The notes beneath the pieces are model-generated. The model was not told where the DNA came from. It did no database searches and saw only the letters and a list, made by a program, of their open reading frames with translations. Shown piece by piece: positions 4,981 to 19,762 of a DNA stretch of 64,000 nucleotides. This DNA comes from an uncultured Flavobacteriaceae bacterium (GTDB lineage Bacteria > Bacteroidota > Bacteroidia > Flavobacteriales > Flavobacteriaceae): assembly GCA_964385175.1 (NCBI GenBank), contig CAYLNL010000001.1:284593-348592 (forward strand), given 5' to 3'. The position numbers and the translations under genes were made by a program. The number at the start of each line of letters is the position of its first letter. Within the stretch, counting starts at the first letter, position 1.

Positions 4981-5135
4981 CCCCTGCTCCCGAAGTCTCC
5001 CGACTTCGGAACCCTCGTGTACCCGCTCCCGCGCAGGCGCGTGCCTGTATGTGCGCGGGTACGGGCACGAGCGTGACGCGTGCGCCGGTGAGAGTGAGGG
5101 AGTGGTACGAGCCAGAAGGCTCACACCGGCGAGAG
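4981..5135 (+). repeat. GC-rich mosaic hairpin repeat, copy A (modules M1-M2-M3-M5)
   Basis: M1 is CCGAAGTC-TCCC-GACTTCGG (4990-5009). M2 is CCCGCGCA..TGCGCGGG. M3 is CACGAGCGTGACGC. M5 is GTACGAGCC-AGAA-GGCTC. The same modules recur at eight or more other gaps. Confidence 0.9.
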
Positions 5136-5284
5136 GAATGTTTATTCCTGCTGTACCTTCGTGAAGCCGGACAAAATATTAGCGGCAAGCCACTGTCTGT
5201 GACAGCACTCACTTTTGGAATTTTAAGAAAAACACTTAAATTCATACATTTGCAACCTATAAGAATACACAACTATCAAGACAG

Positions 5285-6517
5285 ATGAGTAAAATAAAAA
5301 TAAAAAATTTTGGGCCGATTAAAGGCGGATTGGGTGATGATTGGATTGATATCAAGAAAGTGACTGTTTTAATAGGGAATCAAGGAAGCGGGAAAAGTAC
5401 TGTTGCAAAATTGATTTCAACTTTCTCTTGGATTGAAAAAGCTCTATACAAGCAAGGGATTAAGAAAGAAGATGTCAAAAGAAAATCTAAATTTGAAAAC
5501 TATTATTGTGAATACCAAAACTTAAAAAACTATTTTAAAAATGACAGTGAGATTGAATTTGAAGGAGATAGTTTTAAGTTCACTTATAAAAGGGGAAGAT
5601 TGTCAATAGACGAAACAAAGGGTGGGAAGTATTTAGTTCCCAAAATAATGTATGTACCAGCAGAAAGAAACTTTGTCAGTGCTGTTTCTCAACCAGAAAA
5701 ACTTAAATATTTACCCAAGACGTTATACACTTTCTTGGAAGAATACGAACGTTCTAAGGAGGAACTTTCTGATAATTTAGATATTCCAATCAATAATCTA
5801 AAATTTCAACACGATAATAGAAAAGGAGAGTCTAAGATAATAGGAGAAGATTATGATTTGCTTTTATACCAAGCTTCAAGTGGTTTACAATCTGCAATTC
5901 CTCTTTTTTTAGTATCTAAAAATCTGAGTGAAGGCATTGATAGAGCATCCGACAATTCTAAAAGCAAAATAAGTTTGGAAGAAATGCAAAAACTTAGAGA
6001 TAGAATTTTAATGATATTAAGAAATGAAAAGCTAACTGACGATTTGATGAGAAGTCAGGCTGTTGAATTGCTTTCTTCCATTACTAAAAATGATTGTTTT
6101 ATTAATATTGTTGAAGAGCCAGAGCAAAACTTGTTTCCTTTGTCGCAATGGGAAATGCTGAAAAAGCTTCTGGAGTTCAGTAATTTCAATCAGGGGAACA
6201 AATTAATAATGACTACCCATAGCCCCTATTTAATAAACTATATCAGTATTGCAATCCAAGCTGAATATTTGAAAAACAAGATTGAAGAAAATATCAATGC
6301 CACTGTTTTAATCAATAAAATCGAAAAAATCATCTCTCAAAAAGCGCTTGTTTCCGCTTCTGATGTTGTTGTTTATCAGCTTGACGAAACAAATGGAATA
6401 ATTAAAAAATTGCCAACAACAGAGGGGATACCTTCAGATAATAACTATTTAAATGAATCACTACGACATTGCAACGAAATGTTTGATAATCTTTTAGAGA
6501 TAGAACAGGAATTATGA
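5285..6517 (+). CDS. ABC/SMC-like AAA ATPase (AAA_15/AAA_21-type), defence-type
   Basis: Walker A GNQGSGKST, signature-like QASSGLQS, Walker B CFINIVEEPEQNLFP, H-loop MTTHSPY. AT-rich. Its stop overlaps the start of the next ORF (ATGA). Confidence 0.8.
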   Translation: MSKIKIKNFGPIKGGLGDDWIDIKKVTVLIGNQGSGKSTVAKLISTFSWIEKALYKQGIKKEDVKRKSKFENYYCEYQNLKNYFKNDSEIEFEGDSFKFTYKRGRLSIDETKGGKYLVPKIMYVPAERNFVSAVSQPEKLKYLPKTLYTFLEEYERSKEELSDNLDIPINNLKFQHDNRKGESKIIGEDYDLLLYQASSGLQSAIPLFLVSKNLSEGIDRASDNSKSKISLEEMQKLRDRILMILRNEKLTDDLMRSQAVELLSSITKNDCFINIVEEPEQNLFPLSQWEMLKKLLEFSNFNQGNKLIMTTHSPYLINYISIAIQAEYLKNKIEENINATVLINKIEKIISQKALVSASDVVVYQLDETNGIIKKLPTTEGIPSDNNYLNESLRHCNEMFDNLLEIEQEL

Positions 6518-7014
6518 GTTTGAATTTTTTCAAGGCCGATTGCCAGTATCAACCTATTACGTCAGCTATATTCGGCCTATGTGACAATCAAGATGATACA
6601 AAGGCCTTTCCTGATACAGATGTTGCAAATCAAGAATCACAATGGATAGCCATAGTTAAAAACGAGAAAAAATTTTCAGTGGTATTTACTGCTATTGACA
6701 AATGTGTTTTACAAAATAATGAGGAGGTGGGTAAAGGTAGGTGTGATGGAATGCTTACAACTTGTAATCACTTATATTTAGTTGAACTTAAGAATCAGAA
6801 GGAAGATTGGCAAACTGATGCAAAGAATCAGCTCCTTTCTACAATTGATTTACTAATAGCGAACCACGACATAACCCGGTACAAAAAGAAAAAAGCCTTT
6901 GCTTGTAACAAACGAAGAAAAAAGTTTGCTGAGATAGACAACGAGGAGAATTTAATATTGTATAGAAAGACGGGGTTTAGAATTGATATTCAAGCAGAAA
7001 TTGTGGTTATTTAA
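6514..7014 (+). CDS. Small PD-(D/E)xK-like predicted nuclease, partner of the ATPase
   Basis: Motif RCDGML-x-LYLVELKNQK (D-x12-ExK) after beta-strand-like segments. Translationally coupled to 5285..6517. Confidence 0.55.
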   Translation: MSLNFFKADCQYQPITSAIFGLCDNQDDTKAFPDTDVANQESQWIAIVKNEKKFSVVFTAIDKCVLQNNEEVGKGRCDGMLTTCNHLYLVELKNQKEDWQTDAKNQLLSTIDLLIANHDITRYKKKKAFACNKRRKKFAEIDNEENLILYRKTGFRIDIQAEIVVI

Positions 7015-7027
7015 TATTAGGGACATA

Positions 7028-7136
7028 TCTCCCTGCCCCGTTCCCCGAAGTCTCCCGGTTTCGTAACTAAAACAAAAACCTCCCGCGCAGGCGCGCCTAT
7101 ATACGCGCGGGCGCAGGTGCACGAGCGTGACGCTCA
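7028..7136 (+). repeat. GC-rich mosaic hairpin repeat, copy B1 (M1-M2-M3)
   Basis: CCCGAAGTCTCCCGGTTTCG, then AAAACAAAAACC, then CCCGCGCAGGCGCG..CGCGCGGG, then CACGAGCGTGACGC. Confidence 0.9.
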
Positions 7137-7143
7137 CAAATAC

Positions 7144-7276
7144 CATCCCGCTCCCCGAAGTCTCCCGACTTCGGAACCTCGCGTACCCGCCCTCACGCGC
7201 AGGCGCGCGCCTGTACACGCGCGGGCGCAGATGCACGGACAAATACTACCCGAAAGGGATTGTGGGGTAGCGGGGA
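7144..7276 (+). repeat. GC-rich mosaic hairpin repeat, copy B2 (M1-M2-M6), in tandem with B1
   Basis: CCGAAGTCTCCCGACTTCGG, then CACGCGCAGGCGCGCGCCTGTACACGCGCGGG, then TACCCGAAAGGGATTGTGGGGTAGCGGGG. Confidence 0.9.
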
Positions 7277-7278: not shown

Positions 7279-7629
7279 TTATTTTTCTTTGTCAATTATC
7301 CGGTCAATCTGGATTTTGTTCCCTGGTAAATAATTGGTAGCTACATCCCAAATTATCTCATAATCAACTCCAAAATATTCATGTGAAACCCTGTTTCTCA
7401 AGTAGTACATTTCTTTCCATGGAATATCAGGATACTTTTCTTTTATCCTTTCATCTAAGTTTTTAGAGGCCTCACCTATTATTTCAAAATTCCTGATAAC
7501 TGCGTCAACTGTTTTATAATCCCTTTTGAAATGCTCGAAATCATATCCTTTGATATATTCAGCAATCCGACTCATCGCTGTTTGGATGTCATCAAGGAAC
7601 ATTCTGTGACTACGTTCTTCTTTTCTCAC
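7279..7629 (-). CDS. hepT: HepT-type HEPN (DUF86) RNase toxin
   Basis: Rx4H motif in YLRNRVSHEYF and a typical DUF86 N-terminus (FLDDIQTAMSRIAEYI). Directly downstream of the MNT gene. A GTG start lies at 7629 and an alternative ATG at 7602. Confidence 0.85.
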   Translation of the reverse strand: MRKEERSHRMFLDDIQTAMSRIAEYIKGYDFEHFKRDYKTVDAVIRNFEIIGEASKNLDERIKEKYPDIPWKEMYYLRNRVSHEYFGVDYEIIWDVATNYLPGNKIQIDRIIDKEK

Positions 7630-7630
7630 A

Positions 7631-7921
7631 TTATACGTATTTTACCTGATTTAAAATCCTATCCTTTATTTGTTCCTTTAATGCGTTTTTGGTCACTAAA
7701 TCAATCTTTCGCCCAAAAATATTCTCAAGATAAATTTCTAAGGAAAAATATTTCCATCCGATAGGTTTTTCAAATTCAACAAGTAAATCAATATCACTAT
7801 CATCTGTATTTGAATCATCAGAAAATGAACCAAATAGCCCAATCTGCTTAACAGCGTATTCCCGGTATAAAACTGGCTTTAAATCGCTCAACGTATTCAA
7901 TATGTCATTCCTGGTAATCAT
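7631..7921 (-). CDS. mntA: MNT-type nucleotidyltransferase antitoxin
   Basis: GLFGSFS...DSDIDLLVEF (GS-x-DxD polymerase-beta-type NTase motif). I take the ATG at 7921; the ORF track extends to a TTG at 7945. Confidence 0.85.
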   Translation of the reverse strand: MITRNDILNTLSDLKPVLYREYAVKQIGLFGSFSDDSNTDDSDIDLLVEFEKPIGWKYFSLEIYLENIFGRKIDLVTKNALKEQIKDRILNQVKYV

Positions 7922-8026
7922 AATCCAAATATATAACTTTTTCAAGTTACATAGGAATCTGTCTTTCTAAGCATGCCCTACAACTTGTTGATATGGCAAC
8001 TATACCCAAAACCTTTTACTTAACAT

Positions 8027-8187
8027 TCCCCCACTCCGCAAAGGCTCCCGGTTTCGGAACGAAAACAAAAACCGCTCGCGCGCAGGGGCGCCTGCGCGCA
8101 TGGGTACGCGCACGAGTGTGGCGCGGGCGCTGGTGAGAAGGAAATAATATCTTGCAAAGCCGGGAGACGTTGCGGGGCGGAGGGAGC
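8027..8187 (+). repeat. GC-rich mosaic hairpin repeat, copy C (M1-M2-M3-M4)
   Basis: CCGCAAAGGCTCCCGGTTTCGG..AAAACAAAAACC..CGCGCAGGGGCGCC..CACGAGTGTGGCGC..GAGAAGGAAATAATATCTTGCAAAGCCGGGAGACGTTGCGGGGCGG. Confidence 0.9.
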
Positions 8188-8215
8188 AAGAAAAAATATT
8201 TAGTTTAATCTTACG

Positions 8216-9094
8216 TTAGCGGTTGTGCTTCTGTTCCATCTGTGCGAATAAGTCAATGGCCTGCTCCAGAATTGTATGGTGGTGTCCGTTGCCATTCGCT
8301 TTTTTCTGTTGAATGAAGTCAAGGCGGTATTCGTTTTTAATTTTTCCGTGGTTGTCAAACCTGTCAAGTATCATTTTATAATATTCGGGGTGAAGTTCGC
8401 AACTGATAAAGTTCCTCTTTAAACTTTTGCAAAGCACCAATTCACTGCCACTGCCGCCAAACAAAATAAAACAGTCGTCATTTTCCTGTGTGCAAGATTT
8501 AATCAGCATCTCAACAAGTGGCAAAGGAATTTGGCAGGCATGAAAAGTTTTATCCTTGCTCACATTTTTTACAAGGTCAAAATAAAACCAACTGTAAGGC
8601 ATCCTACCTAAGTGTCCGTTTGCAATTCTACTTTGTATGCGTTTGTCTGTGGGGTTTTGATAAGGAACGGCAACATTGTCTTTGTAAAAATTATTCTTCT
8701 TTGATTTTGTTGCATGAAGAATGGAACGGTGTCCGGTGGTAAATCGTCTTGGGCTGTGTCCAACATTAGTATTGTAAACCCATACATAGTCCTGAACATC
8801 ATAGGCCACTTCATCTAAATACTTAACTCGCAAATGAGCATTCTGCTTCGGATAATTCATCATAAATAAATTACCTGTCGGCTTCAAAACTCTCATGCAT
8901 TCTTTTGTGAGTTGAATATACCAATCAATATACTCGTTCCATTTTGTGGTGTAGTTTTTCCCTGCGTAGTTAATGCCCACATTGTAGTCAGGGTCACCAT
9001 AAACCATATCCAAGCTACCATCGGGCAGTTTAGATAAAACCTTTAAAACATCTTCGTTGAAGACCTTGTTGCGGAATTTATTTAGTGTCTCCAT
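8216..9094 (-). CDS. DNA methyltransferase (beta-class N6-adenine or N4-cytosine)
   Basis: Motif IV variant GDPDYNVG lies near the N-terminus and motif I FGGSGSE near the C-terminus, which is the beta-class order. Confidence 0.8.
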   Translation of the reverse strand: METLNKFRNKVFNEDVLKVLSKLPDGSLDMVYGDPDYNVGINYAGKNYTTKWNEYIDWYIQLTKECMRVLKPTGNLFMMNYPKQNAHLRVKYLDEVAYDVQDYVWVYNTNVGHSPRRFTTGHRSILHATKSKKNNFYKDNVAVPYQNPTDKRIQSRIANGHLGRMPYSWFYFDLVKNVSKDKTFHACQIPLPLVEMLIKSCTQENDDCFILFGGSGSELVLCKSLKRNFISCELHPEYYKMILDRFDNHGKIKNEYRLDFIQQKKANGNGHHHTILEQAIDLFAQMEQKHNR

Positions 9095-9788
9095 TTTGTA
9101 AATAAGGATTTAAGTATTTCTGAAGCTCCGTATGAGAGAGAATACAAATTCCTCTTGTCTTTGAAAATATTTGAATTGTCTGTGTAATTAATTTTACATC
9201 AATCACACTTTTGGTTTCCGTCTTGTAAATTATGTCCTGAATGAAACTGCTAATCAGAAGTGGAGCACTGATGACAGTTAAAATTGTATTTACTCTGCCG
9301 ACCTTTGCATTTCGTGTTTTGAAGTCAGGTTTATTATCTGTGATGTGATATTTTACATCTTCATTCCAGCTTAGCAAGCCAATGAAGTGAAGATATTCCA
9401 ACAAGCTGATTTCTTTATGGTCAATAAGAAAACAAATCCTATATAACAGCACCAAAACTTTTTTAAAAGTAAGTTGAATGATAATTGAAATTTTAATGAG
9501 GTATTCCCAAATTTTATCAAATGTCCAACTATCTGTTTCGCTTATGTTGTCTTTGCCAACATTGGGAAATATGTCGTGAATGTTTGGATTTACTCGTAGT
9601 GTTTCCTTCCATGGTTTGAAAAAGTATGCCTCTTTCTGATTGGGCAAAGTAGGAATCAAATGTTTATTCGGTTTTGCTATCGTCCCCCGAACAAATGCCA
9701 TTGCCTCTTCAATCCGCATCTCTCGCTGCTTAATAAATTCGCGTGTGCTTCTAAATATCCTGGTTGTTATTATTTCTTGTTGAACCAT
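9078..9788 (-). CDS. Hypothetical protein; candidate cognate type II restriction endonuclease by position only
   Basis: Its 3' end overlaps the methyltransferase start by 17 nt on the same strand. I recognise no motif. I take the ATG at 9788; a TTG at 9812 is also possible. Confidence 0.35.
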   Translation of the reverse strand: MVQQEIITTRIFRSTREFIKQREMRIEEAMAFVRGTIAKPNKHLIPTLPNQKEAYFFKPWKETLRVNPNIHDIFPNVGKDNISETDSWTFDKIWEYLIKISIIIQLTFKKVLVLLYRICFLIDHKEISLLEYLHFIGLLSWNEDVKYHITDNKPDFKTRNAKVGRVNTILTVISAPLLISSFIQDIIYKTETKSVIDVKLITQTIQIFSKTRGICILSHTELQKYLNPYLQNGDTK

Positions 9789-9885
9789 TATTAATTCAAA
9801 ATTATTCGTCAAACTTAGTCAAAAAAACGGTTGGATTTATGCACACACGTTCAAGTGAGCGAGCGAAGCAGGATTGCCGCTAACG

Positions 9886-10040
9886 ACCCCTGCTGCCCGA
9901 AGTCTCCCGGCTTCGGGGCTAAAACAAAACCCGTTCCTGTGCAGGCACGCGCCTATGCGCACGTGGGAATGGGTGTGACGCTCGCGCCGGTGAGAAGGAA
10001 ATAGTATCTCGCAAAGCCGGGAAACTTTGCGGAGTGGAAA
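9886..10040 (+). repeat. GC-rich mosaic hairpin repeat, copy D (M1-M2-M3-M4); a detached M6 lies at 10165-10193
   Basis: CCCGAAGTCTCCCGGCTTCGGG..AAAACAAAACC..GTGCAGGCACGCGCC..GTGTGACGC..GAGAAGGAAATAGTATCTCGCAAAGCCGGGAAACTTTGCGGAGTGG. Further on is TACCACCGGAAAGGATTCGGGCGGGAGC. Confidence 0.9.
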
Positions 10041-10230
10041 ATTCCCCGGCGTGCGCGAGTGCCCAACGCAACTCCCAGAAACAGCCGGTTTACCCTAAAT
10101 TAGTTTTTGGGACATTTGTTTCTGCTGCGTACTTTCGCAGAGTCGGATACGGAGAGTTATAACAATACCACCGGAAAGGATTCGGGCGGGAGCAGTGGCG
10201 GCGCTGATGAGAGTGGGGGAGTGGGCTTCG

Positions 10231-11232
10231 TTAATCTTCATCGTCCACAAGTCGCCAAAAGCGCTTTAACGGCAACTCGGCTTTAAACTCGTCACTAAAG
10301 TTGTCGTAGTGTTTGAATATATTTTCAAGAATGTCGTCCGCAGTCCACAAGCGAATAAAGAAGAACTCCTCTTTAGCTTCAGAAAGAACCTTGCTATTGA
10401 AACCGCTCCACGAAACAAGCAGTCCCAATTCTGCTTTTACTTTTCTCATTACACCTTGCAACTCACGGAGGATTTTTACATCAACTTGAGTTGTCGTAGA
10501 TTTTACTTGAACACAAATTCTCGGTTGCTCAAAACCTAAAGTCCCAGAAGCTGCAAGAATGTCAAGTCCACCGTCTGCACCAGGCGGTGAAAGTTGTGTC
10601 GTGTAACCTTGTGCTTTTAGAATTTGCTCTACAAGTTTTGCGAAGTCGTGTCCTTTGAACTTACGGTCAATTACTTTTATTATTTGGTCTTTGGCGAAAC
10701 GCTCAACATTAAAATCTTCTTCTGCTTCCAATGAAATAGTGTTGGTTTTTTGTGTCGGGATTGTTTTGCCCTCTATCAAAGCAAGAATTCTCTCTACTGC
10801 TTGCACTCTTGAAACTTGTGAAACTGTCAGTAAAGAGCCAAAGGAATACAAAATGTCTTGGTCAAATCTTACTCGGGGAATTGTCGCTAACCACTTAACA
10901 GGTCGCCAATGAATAACGTCCGCTTTCTTTTCGTATTTGTAGTCGCCAGTAACTTTGCCAATGTGAATTACAGGTTGAAACTTTGAAGGAAGTGCAACAA
11001 GGTCTCCGTTTGCGATTTCGTTTTTAAACCGCCAAATCTGTCCAACAGTAATACCAATTTTCACATTGCTTGTCTGCTCGTAGAGTTCTTGATACTTGTC
11101 AAAAAGGTCGTCCCTTGTTTTGAACTGTGTCAAGTCAGGCAGGTCGTCCCAACCGATTGTGATAAGTTTTTCGTCAAGGCAAGTTTGTTCTTGCTGTCCG
11201 TGCCGCCCTGCTCTAACTGTCCATAGTTTCAT
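10231..11232 (-). CDS. Mrr-cat family restriction endonuclease with an N-terminal putative reader domain (type IV-like)
   Basis: C-terminal GGLDILA...ICVQVKS (D..QxK Mrr catalytic core). The N-terminal ~150 aa (KLWTVRAGRHGQ..GDLVALP..IHIGKVTGDYKY..WRPVKW) resembles small beta-barrel reader domains. Confidence 0.7.
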   Translation of the reverse strand: MKLWTVRAGRHGQQEQTCLDEKLITIGWDDLPDLTQFKTRDDLFDKYQELYEQTSNVKIGITVGQIWRFKNEIANGDLVALPSKFQPVIHIGKVTGDYKYEKKADVIHWRPVKWLATIPRVRFDQDILYSFGSLLTVSQVSRVQAVERILALIEGKTIPTQKTNTISLEAEEDFNVERFAKDQIIKVIDRKFKGHDFAKLVEQILKAQGYTTQLSPPGADGGLDILAASGTLGFEQPRICVQVKSTTTQVDVKILRELQGVMRKVKAELGLLVSWSGFNSKVLSEAKEEFFFIRLWTADDILENIFKHYDNFSDEFKAELPLKRFWRLVDDED

Positions 11233-11438
11233 ATTTTGTCGTAAAAGTTTGAAGTTCGCACTGTTGCCAAATTATAGCCACTAACGGTTTCGGGCTTTGC
11301 GTTCGGGCGGGATTTCAGGGCAAAAAACTGTCAATCCAGCGCTAAGGTTAAATTGAAAAACTGCATTTGACTTTATCATCGTCACTCCGCATGACGCCAA
11401 ACGTGTGTTGGCGGTTCGTGCTTCTTTTCCTTCGTTGG

Positions 11439-11935
11439 TTAGGTCAAGGAACATTGGAATTTAATGTCTAACTCGTCAATAAATTGGAAGTCGTTTATCC
11501 ATCTAATTCCCATGTTGTCACAAACGTTGGGTATTTTTATTTTATTCGAGTTTAAAGCGGTTACTTTTTCTTCTTTGGTAACGATAATCGCATTTTCGTG
11601 TAAAGCATGAGCAATAACCCAAGGGTCAGCTAATGAACGAGTTTTGTATTATCGACTAACAGCGGATAATCTTGTAAAATTTTACGAATGTGTATTGTAA
11701 CGGATTCGCTAATTTTATTGATTGGGATTTTGCTCCCTTTCAACCATTTTGAGAGGTCGTCTTCTGTCCGAATGATTTCTTCGTAAACCAATTCAGGAAC
11801 AAAAATCTTTCCGTTTTTTCCGAGTTCGGTTAAGATTTTCCAATAATCAGGGCAAAATTTTGGGTTGTAGTATTTTTGCCATGCTTGGATTAACACATTG
11901 GCATCCAAACAATATTTGTTTGCCTTTGTGCTCAT
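11439..11935 (-). pseudogene. DUF4411-type PIN-like protein, split by a frameshift near 11630
   Basis: The 101-aa ORF (CLDANVLIQAWQKYY...) stops at TAG 11630-11632. The next frame (11439..11630) reads ADPWVIAHALHENAIIVTKEE..KIKIPNVCDNMGIRWINDFQF, the expected C-terminal half. Together they give ~164 aa. Confidence 0.7.
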
Positions 11936-13110
11936 CTAAATAATTGGGATTCGAGTTTTGGAAATTTATTTACTTGAACATTTAACAGATTACTGGCTAA
12001 TGTAGGCTCGATAAATCCACCACGAAATGCATCTAAAACAGTTTGAGTAAATAGTCTGCTATTTCTGTTTAGTTGTAACAAAAAGTAATTCGGTCCGCCT
12101 GATTTATCCTTTTCTTTTTGCTTGGCTTTATTTTCGGCTTCTCTTTTCGAATATTCGGCATAATCGATGTCAGCTTGTTTTTTTAACTTCTGATATGTTG
12201 GTGTCGGAATAATATTAAGATTCAATGCACGAACTAAGAGAGCAAATGAACTTACACCTAATTGCTTTGCAACCTTGAAAACATCTTTAGAGGTTTGAAA
12301 AGAAGTTGAATCAAAACTCAAAACAATTTCTTTTGGCATTAAAGCATTTGCCGCAACTTCATTGCAGAATAATTCTACTGGATGAAACTTGTCTTTGTGT
12401 TTTATGTCGGGCTCAACTTCATTTGAAATGCCTGTTTCAGCTATCCAAATGTGAGCTAACTCATGAACAAGTGTAAATAATTGTGGTGCATTCCAATCGT
12501 CCGAGTTTACAAAAACGAAAGGTGCGTATGGGTCAGCAATTGCAAAACCTTGCAACTCTTCCGAATCTAGTTTAAGACGGGAGTGAATAAAACTTGTTCT
12601 TGAAACAAAAATGCTATTCGTTTCTGCTGCATCAATCCATTCTTTAATTGGGTTGTCTGTCTTGTAGGATGCAGGATTTATTTTTAATGTATCAAGAATG
12701 TCTTTTGCTACAGTTTGAGGATTATCCTTTATTGAATAGCGACCTACAAAAGCTAATTTGTCTTCTTGATTTTCTGAATAAACATCGCTTATCCAAGCTT
12801 GCTTTTGTTGGATTTCTCTGATGATAAAAATTGAAGATGTTGTCAGATTTTTTGAGCCTGATTTTCTGAAGTCTTGAAGTGGCTGAAAGTCACGAGGAAC
12901 ATCTGGTAAAAAGAATAAAGCAAATGGTCTTTTATAAGCTTTAGCAAGCGTTTGTGCTTGTCTTATTGTCGGATGATTTGTCCCTGCTTCCCACTCTTTC
13001 AATTTGTCAACCGTTACGGAAACTTTGGCAGCAGCAGTTTCTTCGGTCATTCTTGCCGATTCTCTTGCCCATTTAAGAACATTTGGTGTTATGTATGCTT
13101 TGTCTGCCAT
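11932..13110 (-). CDS. XRE-HTH plus ImmA/IrrE (COG2856) zinc metallopeptidase fusion
   Basis: N-terminal HTH (LKWARESARMTEETAAAKVSV) and the HExxH motif LVHELAHIW. Its stop overlaps the start of the DUF4411 gene. Confidence 0.85.
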   Translation of the reverse strand: MADKAYITPNVLKWARESARMTEETAAAKVSVTVDKLKEWEAGTNHPTIRQAQTLAKAYKRPFALFFLPDVPRDFQPLQDFRKSGSKNLTTSSIFIIREIQQKQAWISDVYSENQEDKLAFVGRYSIKDNPQTVAKDILDTLKINPASYKTDNPIKEWIDAAETNSIFVSRTSFIHSRLKLDSEELQGFAIADPYAPFVFVNSDDWNAPQLFTLVHELAHIWIAETGISNEVEPDIKHKDKFHPVELFCNEVAANALMPKEIVLSFDSTSFQTSKDVFKVAKQLGVSSFALLVRALNLNIIPTPTYQKLKKQADIDYAEYSKREAENKAKQKEKDKSGGPNYFLLQLNRNSRLFTQTVLDAFRGGFIEPTLASNLLNVQVNKFPKLESQLFR

Positions 13111-13192
13111 TTAGGTCTCAAAAATACAAATTTTAAGGTCGGTTTTGCCAAAATACTAATGTTTTGTCGATAGCTGTCGGTTTTTAGCATGA

Positions 13193-13312
13193 CCGCCAAC
13201 GACGAGCGGCCTCACGCAGTTCGCCTGTGGCGAATTGTGTGAAACCGATGTTGTGAGAAGTCCCCAAGGGCTTCTCACGGCATCGCCGTGAAGCCGCTCG
13301 TCGTTGTGGCGG
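13193..13312. repeat. 120-bp imperfect palindrome (long bulged stem plus internal hairpins)
   Basis: The left arm CCGCCAACGACGAGCGGCCTCACG pairs with the right arm CGTGAAGCCGCTCGTCGTTGTGGCGG, leaving one bulge. Inner hairpins are TTCGCC/GGCGAA and GTGAGAAG/CTTCTCAC. A left-arm-only copy lies at 19501-19540. Confidence 0.85.
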
Positions 13313-13470
13313 AAGCCCGCAGGGATTTCGCCACAACGGTTTGCAGCTACCCGAAGGTGGCGATTTCGAAGCACTAAACTGTCAACCAAGCACAAACTTT
13401 GATAGAAGCACAAGGCTTGATTTAACCACTGAACCGCCACTTTTGGGTAGGTGCTGTTATGCCTTCGTGC

Positions 13471-14748
13471 TTATCTCAAAACTCTTATCGCCTTTACTGG
13501 CCAATTAGAAAATTCTGCATCTTCAATGTCATAAATTTCTATTTTCCCCTTGTCTTTAAGTACATTAACTTGAGCGTAAGTTGGTCCAAATGAATAACCC
13601 TTGCTCCCTAAAACGTTTGTCACAAAAGATTTAAGCCCAATAAATGTAAGTCCCTTTGACTTTAAAGTATCTTCTGCTCGGATTAATTCTCTTAGTAATT
13701 CATCTTCACTAATTATTTCAAAATTGTTGTCAAGCGTGGTTGGTAAATCAATTTTCCCTATTACTTTTAAGCCTATTCCTGAAATATTTGACTCTTTACT
13801 TTGTTCTGATTCAATTAATGCGTTCGAAGTCTTAATCATTGCTTCCTGCTCTTCAACAGAAAATCTGAAATCGTCTATCTTGTTCTCGGCTTTTATAACT
13901 ATATCTTTAATTTCGGTGTATAGTTCATTAGCAGAATCTAAATCTGGTTGGATAAATAAGTTGTTATGAGCTACTTTGTTCCTTAGTTGAAAAAGAAGCT
14001 TCCATTTTTTATCAAAATTAAAATCTTTGAAATGTTGCTTAAAAAATCGATTGTAATTACCATCTAAATCCTGTTTTAATTTTTGTAATTCATCTTCAGA
14101 ATTAATTGATAAAATTTTATCAACAAGATTTTCTGGTTTATTAAATCCTAATTTATGTTTATAGATTATTTCACCTAAATCATTAAAGTCAATTAAGGTC
14201 ATGTCTGTTTCAACTATTTTAGAAAATACCGTCTCATTGTCTTGTCTCAATTTAGTCTTTTCAATGACTTTATCTGGTACAGCTTGTTTCCACCAATCTA
14301 AACCCACTTTTTGAGTGAAAAATTTTGCAAGATACCTTCGTAAAATATTTTCAAGTTCATTTATCAATGGATAAATTTTGTTTGATATTTCTGTTGAAAC
14401 ATCGTCAGTTAATATCCTAATATGGTCAAATCGCAATCTACTTTTCAAGTGCAAAACAAGCGGGTAACGAAACTTCTCTAATTTATCGAAGTCATTGCAG
14501 GTTGTCTTAATAATGAATGCTGATTCATACAAGTTATAAAGAACAGAACTTGTGTCAACGGGCTTTATTCTAAGACTAAGGTTTTTGTCCTTTATGTATT
14601 TTTTACCTTTTTCATCAATTTCTTCTGGGTTTTCCCATAATTTTTCTGTAGATAAAAGTCCATACAACAAGCTTTTAGTAGATTGAATCTCGCTATTACC
14701 ATTTGGGTCTATAATTAGCAATTCAAAAGTGTAATCTCTTTTATTCAT
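13471..14748 (-). CDS. Swt1-like HEPN domain protein (predicted RNase) with unknown N- and C-terminal domains
   Basis: ELENILRRYL..VGLDWWKQAVP..LIDFNDLGEII..LFQLRNKVAHNNLF (Rx4H). Single-gene, AT-rich cassette. Confidence 0.7.
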   Translation of the reverse strand: MNKRDYTFELLIIDPNGNSEIQSTKSLLYGLLSTEKLWENPEEIDEKGKKYIKDKNLSLRIKPVDTSSVLYNLYESAFIIKTTCNDFDKLEKFRYPLVLHLKSRLRFDHIRILTDDVSTEISNKIYPLINELENILRRYLAKFFTQKVGLDWWKQAVPDKVIEKTKLRQDNETVFSKIVETDMTLIDFNDLGEIIYKHKLGFNKPENLVDKILSINSEDELQKLKQDLDGNYNRFFKQHFKDFNFDKKWKLLFQLRNKVAHNNLFIQPDLDSANELYTEIKDIVIKAENKIDDFRFSVEEQEAMIKTSNALIESEQSKESNISGIGLKVIGKIDLPTTLDNNFEIISEDELLRELIRAEDTLKSKGLTFIGLKSFVTNVLGSKGYSFGPTYAQVNVLKDKGKIEIYDIEDAEFSNWPVKAIRVLR

Positions 14749-14902
14749 ATCTTATTTTTATTTATGTGTCTTTAGCATGTGGCATAACGTTTAGATAAAC
14801 GCAAATATAGAAAAAACAGCATATAAAACCCTGCCGATTGCGTCTATCCAGCTAATTTTACAGGATAAAACGAAACGGGTTCCGGCGTTGCGTTTATCCA
14901 AA

Positions 14903-15062
14903 TCTCCCCGCTCCCCGAAGTTTCCCGATTTGGAAACGAAAACAAAAACCACTCCCGCGCAGGCACTCCTGTATGTGCGCGGGTGCGGGCGCACGAGCGT
15001 GACGCTGGCGCCGGTGAGAGTGAGGGGGTGGTACGAGCCATAAGGCTTGTACTGGCGGGAGG
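14903..15062 (+). repeat. GC-rich mosaic hairpin repeat, copy E (M1-M2-M3-M5)
   Basis: CCCGAAGTTTCCCGATTTGG..AAAACAAAAACC..CCCGCGCAGGCACTCCTGTATGTGCGCGGG..CACGAGCGTGACGC..GGTACGAGCCATAAGGCTTGTAC. Confidence 0.9.
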
Positions 15063-15146
15063 CTTATTTTTTTCAGCCTGTTTATGGACGCATTGTAATG
15101 GTTTCCAAAACCTGGATTACCGGGTTCCGGAAGACCGGTTATTTGT

Positions 15147-18100
15147 TTATGGGAGCGATTGTACCCAATGATTAAGCCGCGCGGGAACAACGGTAAATTT
15201 TATATTCCGCCCGGCGCCGCCTACGCTGGCTCTAATTATATTTTGTATTTCGGCAGGAACAGGAATAGGGGTAACGATGTGAAAATCTAGGTCCCATACT
15301 TGTTGCCAAACATCCATTCCCTGCCGCCCAACACGTTCGCTAAGGATGTTGTATTGTATTTGCCGTCCTTTTTCGATGGAATTTACTGCCTGCCGAACCC
15401 GGTGTGTAACTGTATCTACATCTTTTAATATATTTCCCAGTTTCCCGCCTTCCTGTGGCCAAAAAGTCCAGTACTTAGAATCGGCGCCTTTTAAATCACT
15501 CATACACAAATGGTCGGCTTCGGGGGCTACTGTTTTTTTCTCAGCCACTTTAAATTTGTCGCCCCAACGGGTCTGGCGGTAAGGGGTATGTATTTCCCGT
15601 TTGGTTACCCCTGCCCAGGCGCTATCCGTAGCTGCCAAATCGGCTTCTGCCTGTACCTGGTATAAGTCGGTTGACTTCCTGCCCCCGAACTTGTCGTTTT
15701 GGGCTGGGAGGATTCCTTCATCCATCATTTTACTCAATTGTTGCTTTTCTAAATTTCTGCCTATGTACAGTTCGTTCAGCCTGTCCACGTGCATGGCATG
15801 CCGGGTTCTTGCGCTTTGTAGTTCCTGTCTTCGCAAATCAAGGCTCTTTTCCTGTCGCACCATCCCGCGTTCCCATGATTGCATCTCCTGGGTAACGGCT
15901 TTTAAAGAAGGGTCATCTGCCCGGCGTTGTATTTCGGCTTTTAATTTCTCTTTAGTGGCTTTTATGTCGTCTTCGAGTTTTGTGATTCGTTGTTCAAGAG
16001 ATTCTATATCATCTAACGCTTTTTGCGCCTGGCTGAGGATTTTCTGTTCTGCCTTAACGCTTTTACTGAAGAGGCTGGCCATTTGGGAGCGCAGTTGCCG
16101 GCAGGTTGCTGCCTGTATTGAGAAAATATCTTCTAAGTAGGCTCTTTCCATGGTGGTTGCATACCAATCTAAATGGTTAATCGCCTGCCGTTCTAATGCT
16201 CTGGCGGCTTTGGCATATCTTCTAAAAGCAAGTCCAAGAGGCAATAGTGAGGCAACAACCACGGCGCCTCCTGCAAGCCGCTCCAGCATACTAACTTTCC
16301 TGCCCTCCAGGTCTCGTCCTGTGTAGGCTGTGTAAGCCCCGATATGGGGGGCGGCAATGATTTCTACCGCGGTAGAGAGCATAATCCAATAATTTCTGTC
16401 ATATCGTTCCCGCGCTGTAATGCTGATGACTGTATCAATTTCTTCGGCTTCTTTTTTACAGGTATACATTATCCTGGTGTTTTTGAGAGCATTCGGCATT
16501 TTGTGCACCGTAACGGGAATTTCTTCCATAGCGCCCAACTCTGCAACCGGGAGTTCTAAAAGTTCTAAGTATTTATGGGTAATGGCAATGGGTAGTTCAT
16601 ACACAGGGTGAGGTTCATCTAACCAGGCAATGGCATTGGCAATCATTCTTCCCTTCAGGTGCAATTCCCGTTGTTGTTCCTGGGAAAGCCCTTCTGCCTG
16701 CCGGGTTTTGAGGTTCACCTGGCGAAGCGTGTTTAGTAGAGGGTATAGTTGTGCGTTTTGTCCTCTCAAAGCATCTTTGTACACCGGAACTTCTACCTGG
16801 TGCTGCTGGAAGCGTAAGACCACCTTATCGCCATCTTCCCGATAAATTGCTTCCCAGGGTTCTTTACTTTCATAGGAACCTTTTTTGTATGTTTCGGGGA
16901 GTTCCCATTCATGGCTATCTTCCTTAGGGTCGATTACCGTTACAGGCACTTTTCCCGATATTCCCCTTCCGTCTGCTCTTCCCGGCGCTACCCTAAAGGT
17001 GGTATTCTCTCCTTCTACAAGATAAACGGCGGGTTTAAACTCATGATTCAGAATGCTGAGATAGGTTGGGGCCACGAGGTCAACAGTAAATTCAATGGCT
17101 TCGGAAGAAACCAGGGGGGCGAGCGTTGCATCTTCCACAACAGGGAAAAGTTTATATTGGGTGGCGTGCAGCTGATCTGATAAGGGGAGTCCATCTTCTA
17201 CGGGGATAAACCCGCCAAAAGATGCTTCAAGGAATTTCAACTCGGTTACACCTTCTGCATCGGTAACAGTACAGGGCATACTTCCTTCAAAGTTTTCAAT
17301 GTGCCATGCTATGCGACAATTGGGTATAGGGTCGTCAAATTCGTCAATAACCCGTACCGAGAGCGCTCCGTGGATGCCCGCCTGGGGATCAATCACTACC
17401 TCCTGGGGGCCATTTCTCGTAATGCGAATGCCGGGTAAATCGGGAATTTCCGGCAGCTCTGGCCAGGAAATCAGAAATGTCTCAATAGTTTCATTCCATT
17501 GAAGGGTCAAAATTCCTTCAGCAGGTACTTGCATGCTGAGAATTCCAAGTAATGAGGCATATTCGGGCAGGACCAAATCAATTGGTTCGGAAAGATACAC
17601 GGTATCTGAACGGTAGGGTTGCAGTTTGACACTGAGGGAGCTTCCCGCTGTACTGCTGAGCATGACGGACACTTCTTGCAGGGGAGGTTTTTTAAAAACG
17701 GCCTTGACGCGAAGGAGCTCGTGAGGATGCAACCGGGTTACTGCTACCGATGGGTCTAACCTGGTGATGGAAAGAACAACATCTTGCTCTTCCTCTCTTT
17801 CATTGTCTTTTCTCAACCGTCTTTGCCTTAAACGCATCATGCCGTATGCAACCGCTCCGATACCTCCTGCCAGGGCTGCTATTCCAATGATTTTAACCCA
17901 CTTTCGGGAGCCGCTCCATGGAGTTCCCAAATTTCCCCAAAAAAATACGCGGGTTACCGGCAGTTCATTTCCTTTCCACTTGATTTCTAAGGAGGTAATT
18001 TTTGTAGCTCCTTCCGGGATAAGCATATTTCCATTGTAATCTAAGGTTTCCCCGTTGTTGAAATGGAGTTTAATATAGGCAACACTTTGTTCGGGATAGT

Positions 18101-18479
18101 CTAAATGTTGGCGCGCCAGGCGATAGGTAAGCCAGAAACGGTTTCCCAGGGGTTTATCTTCTAACACGGTAGCTGTTACCTGGGGGCTAATGGAAAGTCG
18201 CCTTCCCTGCGGGCTGTCATATAAATAGATAATGGGTTGTATGTGAATTTCTCCGCTGAAGTAAATTTCTCCTCCGTATTTTACATAAAAGCTCTGTTTG
18301 CTCAATGTTAGTGTATCGCGATTGCATTTCCAGGGACCGCCGCTTCGCTCGTGCAATACGAGGGAATCTTGCACCGGTTGCCCCACGGTATTTTCTATTG
18401 CCAGGCACCCAAGAAACACACACCAGCTCCAGGCAACGAAGTGTTGAGATAGTATGGCTTTAACTCCAAATTGTTTCAT
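15147..18479 (-). CDS. Large (1110 aa) membrane-anchored protein of unknown function
   Basis: Signal-like N-terminus, a TM helix (IIGIAALAGGIGAVAYGMM), Ig-like beta-rich middle, a hydrophobic TG-containing segment (AYTAYTGRDLEGRKVSMLERLAGGAVVVASLLPLG), a long coiled coil and a ~250-aa C-terminal domain. Its base composition looks closer to the core genes than to the neighbouring cassettes. Confidence 0.8.
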   Translation of the reverse strand: MKQFGVKAILSQHFVAWSWCVFLGCLAIENTVGQPVQDSLVLHERSGGPWKCNRDTLTLSKQSFYVKYGGEIYFSGEIHIQPIIYLYDSPQGRRLSISPQVTATVLEDKPLGNRFWLTYRLARQHLDYPEQSVAYIKLHFNNGETLDYNGNMLIPEGATKITSLEIKWKGNELPVTRVFFWGNLGTPWSGSRKWVKIIGIAALAGGIGAVAYGMMRLRQRRLRKDNEREEEQDVVLSITRLDPSVAVTRLHPHELLRVKAVFKKPPLQEVSVMLSSTAGSSLSVKLQPYRSDTVYLSEPIDLVLPEYASLLGILSMQVPAEGILTLQWNETIETFLISWPELPEIPDLPGIRITRNGPQEVVIDPQAGIHGALSVRVIDEFDDPIPNCRIAWHIENFEGSMPCTVTDAEGVTELKFLEASFGGFIPVEDGLPLSDQLHATQYKLFPVVEDATLAPLVSSEAIEFTVDLVAPTYLSILNHEFKPAVYLVEGENTTFRVAPGRADGRGISGKVPVTVIDPKEDSHEWELPETYKKGSYESKEPWEAIYREDGDKVVLRFQQHQVEVPVYKDALRGQNAQLYPLLNTLRQVNLKTRQAEGLSQEQQRELHLKGRMIANAIAWLDEPHPVYELPIAITHKYLELLELPVAELGAMEEIPVTVHKMPNALKNTRIMYTCKKEAEEIDTVISITARERYDRNYWIMLSTAVEIIAAPHIGAYTAYTGRDLEGRKVSMLERLAGGAVVVASLLPLGLAFRRYAKAARALERQAINHLDWYATTMERAYLEDIFSIQAATCRQLRSQMASLFSKSVKAEQKILSQAQKALDDIESLEQRITKLEDDIKATKEKLKAEIQRRADDPSLKAVTQEMQSWERGMVRQEKSLDLRRQELQSARTRHAMHVDRLNELYIGRNLEKQQLSKMMDEGILPAQNDKFGGRKSTDLYQVQAEADLAATDSAWAGVTKREIHTPYRQTRWGDKFKVAEKKTVAPEADHLCMSDLKGADSKYWTFWPQEGGKLGNILKDVDTVTHRVRQAVNSIEKGRQIQYNILSERVGRQGMDVWQQVWDLDFHIVTPIPVPAEIQNIIRASVGGAGRNIKFTVVPARLNHWVQSLP

Positions 18480-18804
18480 ATCGGTTGTATTTTAGTTATT
18501 GGTTGTAAAAAAAACCTGAACAGGGTGTATTGGGTGGTTGCATTTTTTCGGTTTTTCAATTTTAACTGCTTCTACCCTTTTCTCTCTGCAAATCTCCTGG
18601 GAACCTGTTAGACAACTTATAGAAGCTTCTCAAAAATACTAAAAAAATTGATGTTCTCCTTTCATAAAGATTCCTGGCTATGCGCCATAGCTTGCTTGCT
18701 TTTCTCTTCAAAGAAAACAGGGGTTCCCCGGCGCACGGGGAGGAAAGCTATGTTAGTAACAGGTGGTAGTAGCCAGGGGGCTTGCAGCGGCGGGAGGCTC
18801 CTTT

Positions 18805-19434: not shown

Positions 19435-19500
19435 ACTTTTTGTTAATTTTATTCCTGGAAAATATACTTGTTATTCGTTTGTCGAACCCTCGTTTAGAGT

Positions 19501-19540
19501 AGCAGCCAACAACGAGCGGCTTCCCGCAGTTCGTCTGCGA
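19501..19540. repeat. Partial (left-arm only) copy of the 13193-13312 palindrome
   Basis: GCAGCCAACAACGAGCGGCTTCCCGCAGTTCGTCTG versus GACCGCCAACGACGAGCGGCCTCACGCAGTTCGCCTG. Confidence 0.7.
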
Positions 19541-19567
19541 CAAATATAGAAAAAATGCTGTTGCTTT

Positions 19568-19762
19568 TCCCCACCCACCTCGCTCTCCTAAATCTCCCAA
19601 CTTCGGAACTAAACCAAAAACCGCTCTCACGTGCGGGAGCGCCTGTATGCGAGCAGGCACGCGCGCTCGCGACCGCGGGAGAAATAGTCTCATACAAAGC
19701 CAGGAGACTTTGCGGAGCGGGAGGGGGTAAATACCACACGAAAGGATTTGTGCGGTAACAGG
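19568..19762 (+). repeat. GC-rich mosaic hairpin repeat, copy F (M1-M2-M4-M6)
   Basis: CCTAAATCTCCCAACTTCGG..AAACCAAAAACC..GTGCGGGAGCGCCTGTATGCGAGCAGGCACGCGCGC..GAGAAATAGTCTCATACAAAGCCAGGAGACTTTGCGGAGCGG..TACCACACGAAAGGATTTGTGCGGTAAC. Confidence 0.9.

Follow-up and report, generated by a model that had tools for sequence, protein, structure and literature searches.

Bacterial immunity draws widely on pairs of an ABC-type ATPase and a nuclease, major examples being Septu, PARIS, Gabija, Lamassu and HEC-02. In PARIS, the ATPase AriA is a scaffold for a separate TOPRIM/DUF4435 nuclease, AriB, which is released upon sensing of a phage anti-restriction protein. PrrC unites an ABC-type NTPase and an anticodon-nuclease domain in a single polypeptide, and prrC sits between hsdS and hsdR in the EcoprrI locus. 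Septu and the type I-A retrons (Ec78/Eco7, Ec83) encode a two-gene module in which an oligomer of the ABC ATPase PtuA regulates the bound HNH nuclease PtuB; cleavage of tRNA-Tyr by PtuAB has been reported (PMC12673091, PMC13096335). HEC-02 consists of an ABC ATPase and a NERD nuclease, which are both needed for its defence against phages (Payne et al., bioRxiv 10.1101/2024.01.29.577857).

A further two-gene combination, PDC-M29, is listed in PADLOC-DB v2 as a multi-gene phage defence candidate (cassette CAS_00123, FAM_00005>>FAM_02872). It is one of 145 computer-predicted 'phage defence candidates', and was discovered through its embedding in type I restriction–modification (R-M) operons (Payne et al., bioRxiv 10.1101/2024.01.29.577857). 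The figure 110 given beside CAS_00123 is taken to be the count of its instances in RefSeq v209. A full-text literature search for PDC-M29 found no paper naming it and no experimental test, and a search for 'PDC-M' returned mostly unrelated uses of the term.

Organization of the locus

The locus described here lies in a 64-kb window (the whole stretch of DNA analysed) of a Bacteroidota genome of only 2.5 Mb and consists of two genes, termed A and B (Table 1). As the initial annotation had stated, the stop codon of A overlaps the start codon of B, the shared sequence being ATGA. Its description of the pair as the sole plus-strand cassette of the island also agrees with the called ORFs, which from 7279 to 22214 are otherwise all on the minus strand. 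The GC content of the A and B module is 32.2%, compared with 43.1% for the genome, and only 0.9% of equally sized stretches of the genome have a GC content this low. Judging from this low GC content relative to the host and from the spread of the pair over six phyla (see below), the cassette is of foreign origin.

The sequence TAnnTTTG is the -7 consensus of sigma-AB promoters in Bacteroidota. By reading of the sequence, TACATTTG, which ends 32 nt before the ATG of A, would be the promoter of this gene. A sigma-70 promoter scan, which was uninformative for this Bacteroidota sequence, gave nothing convincing. Hairpins of the downstream repeat may act as a terminator of the cassette; a simple intrinsic-terminator scan detected no T-tract terminator at this repeat.

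Table 1. Positions of the genes, candidate signals and repeats in the window
Feature	Position	Strand	Description
Gene A	5285..6517	+	410 aa, ATG start; ABC-type ATPase (PtuA/SMC-head-like), PDC-M29A
Gene B	6514..7014	+	166 aa, ATG start; stand-alone PD-(D/E)xK-like protein, putative nuclease effector, PDC-M29B
ATGA stop/start overlap, A to B	6514..6517	+	4 nt; translational coupling
TACATTTG, putative promoter of A	5245..5252	+	fits -7 element TAnnTTTG, by sequence reading
Upstream GC-rich hairpin repeat (copy A)	~4981..5151	+	repeat families D2-D5; core CCCGAAGTCTCCCGACTTCGGAAC at 4989-5012
Downstream GC-rich repeat (copy B)	7028..7237	+	two adjacent partial copies; cores at 7044-7067 and 7154-7177

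Both of the repeat copies that had been described as flanking the pair are present, but they belong to a family dispersed over the genome and are not specific to the cassette. The 24-nt core CCCGAAGTCTCCCGACTTCGGAAC occurs six times in the window, always on the plus strand, versus 0 copies expected by chance, and related repeat copies are found on both strands of contigs C1, C2, C3, C4, C6 and C11. The flanking repeats are thus a dispersed REP/BIME-like element outside the system itself. From this distribution of the repeat, the reading of the repeat-flanked, AT-rich units as integron gene cassettes was rejected: attC sites would be confined to one co-oriented array beside an integrase, but the repeat lies on at least six contigs and on both strands.

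The direct neighbours of the cassette are a TolC-like gene and HepT/MNT, and the wider neighbourhood in the window includes a methyltransferase, Mrr, IrrE with DUF4411, and HEPN. The cassette stands alone in a defence/toxin–antitoxin (TA) island of its host, outside any restriction operon; it is not placed between hsdS and hsdR, and the type I R-M genes of this genome are on contig C3.

Relation to PDC-M29

Protein A matches the PADLOC profile PDC-M29A (PDLC04562) with an E-value of 2.2e-170 and 565 bits, its residues 1-409 aligning with profile positions 1-409 of 410. Protein B matches PDC-M29B (PDLC04564) with an E-value of 8.9e-69 (residues 3-166 on profile positions 1-161 of 162), and a second PDC-M29B profile (PDLC04563) over its full length (E 1.1e-58). 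The genes are adjacent, on the same strand and in the order A to B, as PDC-M29 requires, so that gene order, strand and size are identical to those of the candidate and both profile sets are matched from end to end. The present copy differs in its setting, a defence/TA island punctuated by repeats and not an R-M operon.

Judged by these profiles, the pair represents a further instance of an already listed candidate and no new kind of system. The implied novelty of the small partner, which had not been recognized as a component of any named system, does not hold because PADLOC already lists the pair as PDC-M29; the pair maps essentially onto a named system, albeit a predicted candidate. Novelty is limited further by HEC-02, in which the combination of an ABC ATPase with a nuclease of the PD-(D/E)xK superfamily (NERD) has already been validated.

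The ATPase

Every ABC-type motif quoted for A in the initial annotation is present: GNQGSGKST at residues 31-39, QASSGLQS at 196-203, IVEEPEQNLFP at 275-285 and TTHSPY at 310-315. A thus carries the conserved Walker A, Q-loop-region motif, ABC signature, Walker B with the catalytic Glu, and H-loop. An alignment of 75 family members shows complete or at least 90% conservation of GNQGSGKST (Walker A), MYVPAERNF, SSGxQS, NIVEEPEQNL and TTHSPY. The C-terminal segment of A, residues 364-407, is conserved too. The Pfam search of A found AAA_15 (E 7.5e-18; 65.7 bits against a cut-off of 32.1) and AAA_21 (E 2.6e-9) only, with no TOPRIM or nuclease domain, in line with the earlier statement that A has no such domain fused to it.

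The AlphaFold model of A has a pLDDT of 86.6. In a Foldseek search of the PDB with this model, Septu PtuA (8EEA; E 2e-8) and retron PtuA rank at the top, ahead of SMC and Rad50 heads, and the Foldseek probability is 1.0 for PtuA, SMC and Rad50 heads. The model is without coiled-coil arms and has only a short helical insert at residues 231-267. A belongs to the ABC/SMC-type ATPases, within the AAA_15/AAA_21 group, and is a relative of PtuA and AriA.

The small partner

The D-x12-ExK motif claimed for the small ORF is present in B as D78-x12-E91-x-K93, which is formed by RCDGML (residues 76-81) and LVELK (89-93). An alignment of 110 family representatives, which are 27-56% identical to the window protein, shows E91, K93 and Q106 without exception, and conservation of D62, C77 and D78 reaches at least 90%. 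D62, D78, E91-x-K93 and Q106 make up a PD-(D/E)xK nuclease signature, and no other residues of B are strictly conserved. A divergent B found in a relative (G263) retains these signature residues, with a conservative change of D78 to E. In the predicted structure of B (pLDDT 90.8), the elements around the motif follow the order strand–strand–strand–helix–strand, which is the strand order of restriction endonucleases; D78 is located just before the strand of residues 79-82, and E91-L-K93 closes the strand of residues 86-93.

Profile and fold matches of B point to nucleases and are all sub-threshold. Pfam PDDEXK_9 scores 23.1 bits, under its cut-off of 25.5, and PADLOC Cas4_II gives 2e-5. Across the 110 family members, sub-threshold Pfam matches are to PDDEXK_9 in six, SduA_C in three, NERD in two and BsuBI_PstI_RE in one, and the recurrent ones are to PD-(D/E)xK families alone. 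The Foldseek search of the PDB with the B model returned weak matches to the nuclease domains of McrC, N.BspD6I and Card1/Cdn1, but the best E-value, 0.09 (TM ~0.3), is not significant. A Foldseek search against viral structures (BFVD) gave nothing significant (best E 0.04), and a sequence search of the PDB with the B profiles gave no meaningful match. Given the conserved signature residues and the modelled fold, B is most likely a PD-(D/E)xK-fold protein, as had been proposed.

B also contains five cysteines, C10, C23, C64, C77 and C131, which are conserved in its close subfamily and were considered as an Fe-S or Zn site. Only C77 among them is at least 90% conserved in the wider family.

Conservation of the pair and its genomic context

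The B family comprises 753 clusters at 50% identity. Eighty B loci were compared, drawn from Bacteroidota, Pseudomonadota, Chlorobiota, Desulfobacterota, Spirochaetota and Ignavibacteriota; A is located directly upstream of B in all 75 loci with enough sequence, and the remaining five have a truncated A. The junction between the genes is the -4 nt (ATGA) overlap in 46 of the 74 complete pairs, and ranges from -1 to +4 nt in all but one of the others. Distance matrices of A and B are correlated (Mantel r 0.37), a value reached by none of 999 permutations. Because both proteins have hundreds of homologues and their pairing is conserved, the observation of A beside B goes beyond chance.

Of 401 Bacteroidota genomes, 18 contain A and 17 give a match to the B model, the two genes being neighbours in every case; the pair occurs in 11 of 180 genera and in ~4.5% of the sampled Bacteroidota. 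In the eighteenth genome, a divergent B adjoins A (hhalign probability 99.5%), so that all 18 A-bearing genomes have an adjacent B-like gene and the partner is conserved beside the ATPase. The pair was found in 1 of 72,556 plasmid records, and B was absent from 50,697 phage records. Microcystis phage Mic1 encodes Mic1_13, a homologue of A with 50% identity, without B.

PDC-M29 is patchily distributed, and often inside or beside type I R-M operons. In ~21 of the 80 loci, the gene downstream of B is HsdR-like and has the same orientation, often at a distance of 0-10 nt; HsdS is encoded upstream in 13, and the pair is located between hsdS and hsdR in at least 13. Adjacent type I genes are absent from ~59 of the 80 loci, and the immediate neighbours of related loci (n=137) include 12 HsdR and 8 HsdS. 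Since ordinary housekeeping genes make up the majority of neighbours in other genomes, it is chiefly the subset of loci with type I restriction genes that associates PDC-M29 with defence.

Comparison with characterized systems

PtuA is the nearest fold of A, and its association with a nuclease in a two-gene module resembles the present pair. By analogy, regulation of a bound nuclease by an ATPase oligomer is likely to be a logic shared by Septu, the retrons and PDC-M29. In sequence, the similarity of A to PtuA is slight: the NCBIfam PtuA model scores 32.9 bits versus a cut-off of 500, and the PADLOC PtuA match is partial (8e-11). The TM-score of A against 8EEA is only 0.40-0.45 because the inserts differ. 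Unlike the HNH nuclease PtuB, B is PD-(D/E)xK-like; searches of Pfam, NCBIfam and PADLOC matched it to neither HNH nor PtuB at E≤1, and there is no retron at the present locus. The tRNA-Tyr cleavage by PtuAB cannot be assumed for PDC-M29.

Among validated systems, HEC-02 comes closest in architecture, as its ABC ATPase is accompanied by a separate nuclease of the PD-(D/E)xK superfamily, but PDC-M29 belongs to a different branch of both families. B is no NERD protein: it has no NERD match in Pfam at E≤1 and no HEC-02B match in PADLOC, and the NERD matches of the two family members mentioned above are weak (E 0.006). HEC-02A is not among the best 25 of the 52 PADLOC matches of A.

PARIS shares with the present pair the combination of an ATPase and a separate nuclease, and AriA is the second-best PADLOC match of A after PDC-M29A (E 1.2e-19). 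However, this match is limited to residues 248-317 of A, the C-terminal segment with Walker B and the H-loop, and B has no TOPRIM, DUF4435 or AriB match in Pfam or PADLOC. The EcoprrI locus resembles about one-quarter of PDC-M29 loci in its arrangement hsdS-[insert]-hsdR and in combining an ABC-type NTPase with a nuclease; it differs in that PrrC is one polypeptide, and in that the present copy is outside a restriction operon.

Septu, PARIS, Gabija, OLD, AbiL, Menshen, PD-T4-4, MADS and HEC-01 were all rejected as identities of the pair, since they gave partial matches to the ATPase domain alone, with no matching partner. For Menshen, the required NsnA and NsnC are absent.

Proposed function and alternative explanations

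The A/B pair probably protects the bacterium from viruses. The locus is likely to be an intact PDC-M29 cassette gained by horizontal transfer, whose PtuA-like ATPase would, as an oligomer, detect infection and then license the nuclease B. In this scheme, which is inferred by analogy with Septu PtuAB, PARIS AriAB and HEC-02, A would form an ATP-dependent head-to-head oligomer serving as infection sensor and as a scaffold that keeps B inactive. A phage protein, foreign DNA or a drop in ATP would alter the ATPase state of A, and the altered A would license B to cut nucleic acid, with DNA as the most likely substrate and tRNA as a less likely one. As a result, phage replication would be blocked or the infected cell would abort.

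A PrrC-like guarding of type I restriction is possible but unlikely. Here, the cassette would be a second line of defence that keeps watch over a type I R-M enzyme; a phage anti-restriction protein of the Ocr or Stp type would disable R-M, whereupon the nuclease would kill or arrest the cell. The loci with the pair between hsdS and hsdR, which is the position of prrC in EcoprrI, and those with an HsdR-like gene after B are consistent with this explanation, and the host genome does have type I R-M on another contig. Such a guard logic for embedded ABC ATPases has been discussed (Payne et al., bioRxiv 10.1101/2024.01.29.577857). However, type I genes adjoin the pair neither in the window nor in most of the 80 loci, in the G263 relative the pair stands alone among metabolic genes, and embedding in R-M operons could reflect a 'genomic sink' for defence genes.

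A bolder extension, which is quite unlikely, regards PDC-M29 as a distinct immune system that combines an outlying miniature PD-(D/E)xK effector, a type I guard function and a phage countermeasure based on an orphan ATPase. The guard part of this proposal derives from the prrC-like position in about one-quarter of loci. If it is correct, the effector would be one without a significant neighbour in the PDB or BFVD, the trigger would be phage anti-restriction proteins, and the orphan A homologue of phage Mic1 could serve as a decoy, titrating the host complex or poisoning it.

That the pair is a selfish addiction module, with B as a toxic nuclease and A as an ATP-dependent antitoxin or regulator causing post-segregational killing and no phage defence, is very unlikely. 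The tight coupling with the putative regulator gene first, the mobile and patchy distribution with low GC content, the abundance of TA modules in the island (HepT/MNT, IrrE/DUF4411) and the Pfam description of AAA_21 as 'putative AbiEii toxin, type IV TA' would fit such a module. Against this, addiction modules are usually common on plasmids and phages, from which the present pair and B are almost or entirely missing in the records searched, and neither this gene order nor an ATPase of 410 aa is typical of antitoxins. A TA function would, moreover, not exclude one in abortive infection.

The effector activity might also reside elsewhere, for example in ATP depletion by A or in the recruitment of a host nuclease; B would then be a non-catalytic subunit with a degenerate restriction-endonuclease fold that binds DNA or acts as an adaptor. 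This would accord with the sub-threshold level of every fold and profile match, and with the first 50 residues of B and its conserved Cys, Trp and Asn positions, which are unexplained. It is nevertheless highly improbable: the residues invariant over 110 relatives are the metal-binding/catalytic positions of PD-(D/E)xK enzymes and are located in the right secondary-structure elements, and the G263 variant keeps this signature, which inactive derivatives usually lose.

A housekeeping role as a miniature Rad50/SbcC-type ATPase and nuclease for DNA repair or recombination is scarcely credible, as the match of A to SMC and Rad50 heads and the many housekeeping genes flanking the pair in other genomes are outweighed by its rarity among Bacteroidota (18 of 401 genomes, 11 of 180 genera), its transfer across phyla and foreign GC content, its frequent nesting in restriction operons, and the lack of coiled-coil arms in A, where only the helical insert is found.

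Implications

Within the ATPase–nuclease pairs, PDC-M29 forms a widespread branch, present in at least six phyla and still at the candidate stage. The locus described here adds an intact, compact and unembedded copy. It also adds quantitative support in the strict coupling of A and B, the catalytic signature that holds the sole invariant residues of B, PtuA as the nearest fold of A, and the prrC-like slot in many loci, and PDC-M29 is therefore a well-justified target for cloning and phage challenge. In addition, the presence of the ATPase alone in a cyanophage suggests a possible link to counter-defence.

Assignment of the Two-Gene Cassette

The cassette consists of a gene for a 410-aa ABC-type ATPase (A) and, sharing an ATGA overlap with its stop codon, a gene for a 166-aa PD-(D/E)xK-like protein (B). 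In a PADLOC-DB scan, A is matched over its full length by PDC-M29A (E 2.2e-170) and B by both PDC-M29B models (E 8.9e-69 and 1.1e-58), which are profile models of a predicted phage defence candidate. The next-best matches of A (AriA at 1e-19, PDC-M56A, NsnB, HEC-01A and PtuA) are all partial and fall in the ATPase domain, and the sole further match of B is Cas4_II (2e-5). The PDC systems are 145 'phage defence candidates' derived from genes found inside BREX, DISARM and type I R-M loci, and were entered in PADLOC explicitly as untested candidates; cassette CAS_00123 (FAM_00005>>FAM_02872) carries the remark 'Assign as candidate PDC-M29' in the supplementary table (Payne et al., bioRxiv 10.1101/2024.01.29.577857). 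The number 110 beside this entry is taken to be an instance count. A literature search found no paper naming PDC-M29. Thus, the pair, whose small partner the initial annotation had not recognised from any named system, maps cleanly onto a catalogued, experimentally uncharacterised candidate, of which it is a new, intact and unembedded copy.

The gene structure had been read correctly: ORF calls yield the two overlapping ORFs, and all the quoted motifs are found, namely GNQGSGKST, QASSGLQS, IVEEPEQNLFP and TTHSPY in A, and RCDGML and LVELK in B, which give D78-x12-E91-x-K93. The biochemical reading, an ABC ATPase with a PD-(D/E)xK-like partner, was also largely right.

Coordinates of the cassette, of its surroundings in the window and of related loci
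Feature	Location	Position	Strand	Remark
Gene A	window	5285-6517	+	ORF, 410 aa
Gene B	window	6514-7014	+	ORF, 166 aa
GC-rich multi-hairpin repeat copies	window	~4981-5151, 7028-7237, 8027-8189, 9886-10038, 14903-15077	+	separate AT-rich cassettes
N6/N4 DNA methyltransferase gene	window	8216-9094
ORF, 244 aa	window	9078-9812	-	overlaps start of methyltransferase gene
DUF4411 (PIN-like) ORF, 101 aa	window	11630-11935	-	profile positions 1-84 of 159
Type I R-M, HsdR- and HsdS-like matches	host contig C3	~16.6-21.8 kb
Divergent pair of genome G263	L081	1697-2311, 2302-3531	-, -
Remote pair of genome G087 (contig C207)	L082	2007-3290, 3244-3870	+, +
ORF of ~820-855 aa after pair	L011	6720-9179	as pair
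ORF of ~820-855 aa after pair	L072	6705-9164	as pair
ORF of ~820-855 aa after pair	L075	6650-9217	as pair
Mic1_13, solitary A homologue	MN013189.1	16586-17824		L083 3001-4239

Genomic Surroundings in the Host

The cassette is of foreign origin, its GC content being 32.2% against 43.1% for the genome (the lowest 0.9% of equal-sized windows). It comes first in an AT-rich island bounded by a TolC-like gene on one side and core genes on the other; all the remaining ORFs called, from 7279 to ~22214, lie on the minus strand. It has as neighbours HepT/MNT, an N6/N4 methyltransferase and its unannotated partner, a nuclease of the Mrr type, an IrrE/HTH protein accompanied by a short DUF4411 ORF, and a HEPN protein resembling Swt1. 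The 244-aa partner ORF has no Pfam match and probably encodes the type II restriction endonuclease cognate to the methyltransferase. The DUF4411 ORF, which lies downstream of the gene for the HTH-IrrE/M78 peptidase, looks truncated or frameshifted.

As described initially, the A-B cassette stands between two GC-rich repeat copies. Related copies occur in both orientations on at least six contigs of the host genome (C1, C2, C3, C4, C6 and C11), so that integron attC sites specific to the array are rejected; the repeat is a dispersed element, similar to REP/BIME, and is enriched in variable regions.

The ATPase A and the Nuclease-Like Protein B

The only Pfam domains in A are AAA_15 (7.5e-18) and AAA_21, in agreement with the earlier statement that a fused TOPRIM or nuclease domain is absent. 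Conservation is complete or at least 90% for the Walker A motif, the MYVPAERNF segment, the ABC signature SSGxQS, the Walker B motif NIVEEPEQNL and the H-loop TTHSPY. The best structural neighbours of the AlphaFold model (pLDDT 86.6) are Septu PtuA (8EEA, 8SUX and 8EE4) and the PtuA chains of retrons Ec78, Ec83 and Eco7 (E 2e-8 to 1e-6, probability 1.0), followed by SMC and Rad50 heads, with TM values of only 0.40-0.45 because the inserts differ. By sequence, matches to solved structures are marginal (best E 2e-5), and the score against the NCBIfam PtuA equivalog is far under the cut-off; A thus belongs with the PtuA-like ABC ATPases without being a PtuA orthologue. Its strongly conserved C-terminal segment (residues 364-407) may provide a partner or dimer interface.

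In the model of B, which is confident (pLDDT 90.8), D78 opens a strand (79-82), E91-x-K93 closes the next (86-93), and a helix bearing Q106 (100-117) and a further strand (125-132) follow, the predicted order of elements being the core order of restriction-endonuclease-like enzymes. Among 110 family representatives (27-56% identity to the window protein), only E91, K93 and Q106 are invariant, with D62, C77, D78, D24, N50 and N132 conserved at 90% or more. Independent matches are sub-threshold throughout, yet thematically consistent. B scores 23.1 bits against Pfam PDDEXK_9 (cut-off 25.5); across the 110 members, the only sub-threshold families matched more than once are PDDEXK_9 (6), SduA_C (3) and NERD (2), and BsuBI_PstI_RE, also PD-(D/E)xK, is matched once. 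The top Foldseek matches in the PDB are McrC, the N.BspD6I nickase and the nuclease domains of Card1/Cdn1 (E 0.09-0.5, TM ~0.3); searches of BFVD and, by sequence, of the PDB gave no significant match. B is probably a PD-(D/E)xK nuclease, though this falls short of proof, and is an outlier of the superfamily. Its N-terminal 50 residues are beta-rich.

Five cysteines of B (C10, C23, C64, C77 and C131) are at least 90% conserved in 75 close-subfamily sequences, and only C77 remains so across the 110 diverse representatives; one subclade possibly has a metal or Fe-S site.

Conservation of the A-B Pair

B has 465 homologous clusters at 90% identity, every one annotated 'hypothetical', and 753 at 50%, the 150 best of which hold short stand-alone proteins throughout (full-length members ~160-185 aa). 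A scan with the B alignment, using one genome per species, yielded 80 loci in Bacteroidota (~51), Pseudomonadota (16), Desulfobacterota (6), Chlorobiota (4), Spirochaetota (2) and Ignavibacteriota (1). An A homologue (39-72% identity) immediately precedes B, in the same orientation, in each of the 75 loci whose upstream sequence is long enough, and the five short loci retain its truncated 3' end. The 4-nt overlap of the window recurs in 46 of 74 complete pairs; in all but one of the others the junction is -1 to +4 nt. From the A side, PDC-M29A matches 18 of 401 Bacteroidota genomes, 17 of which have a PDC-M29B match, always adjoining A. In the eighteenth, G263 from the host's family, the ORF that overlaps A (204 aa) was identified by hhalign (probability 99.5%, E 8.5e-23) as a divergent B carrying insertions, in which D62, E91 and K93 are kept and D78 is replaced by Glu. 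Pairwise identities of A and B also correlate (Mantel r 0.37, reached by none of 999 permutations). The small ORF is therefore clearly conserved beside the ATPase. A neighbour survey of related loci found no conserved third gene.

The insertions in the G263 protein total ~40 aa, and the PDC-M29B HMM missed it at E<=1e-15. This pair stands alone between metabolic genes, flanked on one side by a Cys/Met-metabolism enzyme and an Rrf2-type regulator, and on the other by a TauE-like exporter and PAPS reductase. G087 has, besides a canonical PDC-M29, a remoter pair whose ATPase matches PDC-M29A at E 1e-64 and whose 208-aa partner carries a C-E-C...VEMK...Q motif (hhalign probability to B 88%); the B-like effector family therefore reaches beyond PDC-M29.

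Restriction-Modification Loci, Plasmids and Phages

The immediate neighbours of related loci are heterogeneous, with type I R-M genes the most conspicuous: 12 HsdR and 8 HsdS were identified by Pfam among 137 neighbours, and by tblastn ~21 of 80 loci have an HsdR-like gene that follows B in the same orientation, often after 0-10 nt, and 13 of 80 have HsdS upstream. In EcoprrI, prrC likewise lies between hsdS and hsdR. That the pair guards type I R-M in the manner of PrrC, which would be one form of the defence model, is a minority reading. The host has type I R-M genes of its own, on another contig and unlinked to the cassette. The long ORF after the pair in three Bacteroidota loci, two from Chitinophaga and one from Saprospiraceae, is not among the 12 Pfam-confirmed HsdR proteins.

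B was found in one of 72,556 plasmid records, and 50,697 phage records contain no match to it at E<=1e-5. A surprise is Mic1_13, a lone A homologue of Microcystis phage Mic1, which is 50% identical to A over 98% of the protein, with Walker A, signature and H-loop intact and a single Pro-to-Ile change in Walker B (NIVEEIEQNL). No B lies in the 7.2-kb stretch around it; next to it, in convergent orientation, lies a DNA adenine methylase gene. Mic1_13 could be a decoy or counter-defence protein, or a phage-borne exclusion factor.

Proposed Mechanism

Septu and retron PtuAB, PARIS and HEC-02 are analogues of the pair. The architecture of PDC-M29, an ABC ATPase with a probable PD-(D/E)xK-superfamily nuclease, has a validated analogue in HEC-02, in which the ATPase and the NERD nuclease are both needed for defence (Payne et al., bioRxiv 10.1101/2024.01.29.577857). 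By analogy, A would most probably assemble head to head into ATP-dependent oligomers, which would detect infection and either hold B or license it; B would then cut nucleic acid, most likely DNA. Alternatively, the target may be tRNA, as reported for PtuAB (PMC12673091; PMC13096335). Whereas the identity of the pair, its coupling, the conserved motifs, the fold class of A, the foreign origin and the association with R-M are observed, complex formation, trigger, substrate and defence phenotype are all predicted features of PDC-M29. Less probable than the PrrC-like guard is an addiction module, for which the tight coupling of the two genes speaks, and slightly less again a non-catalytic B, against which the invariance of E91 and K93 speaks; a repair function, for all the likeness of A to Rad50 heads, is very improbable. 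As a defence candidate, the system itself is already catalogued, and its interest lies in a family that is widespread yet untested.
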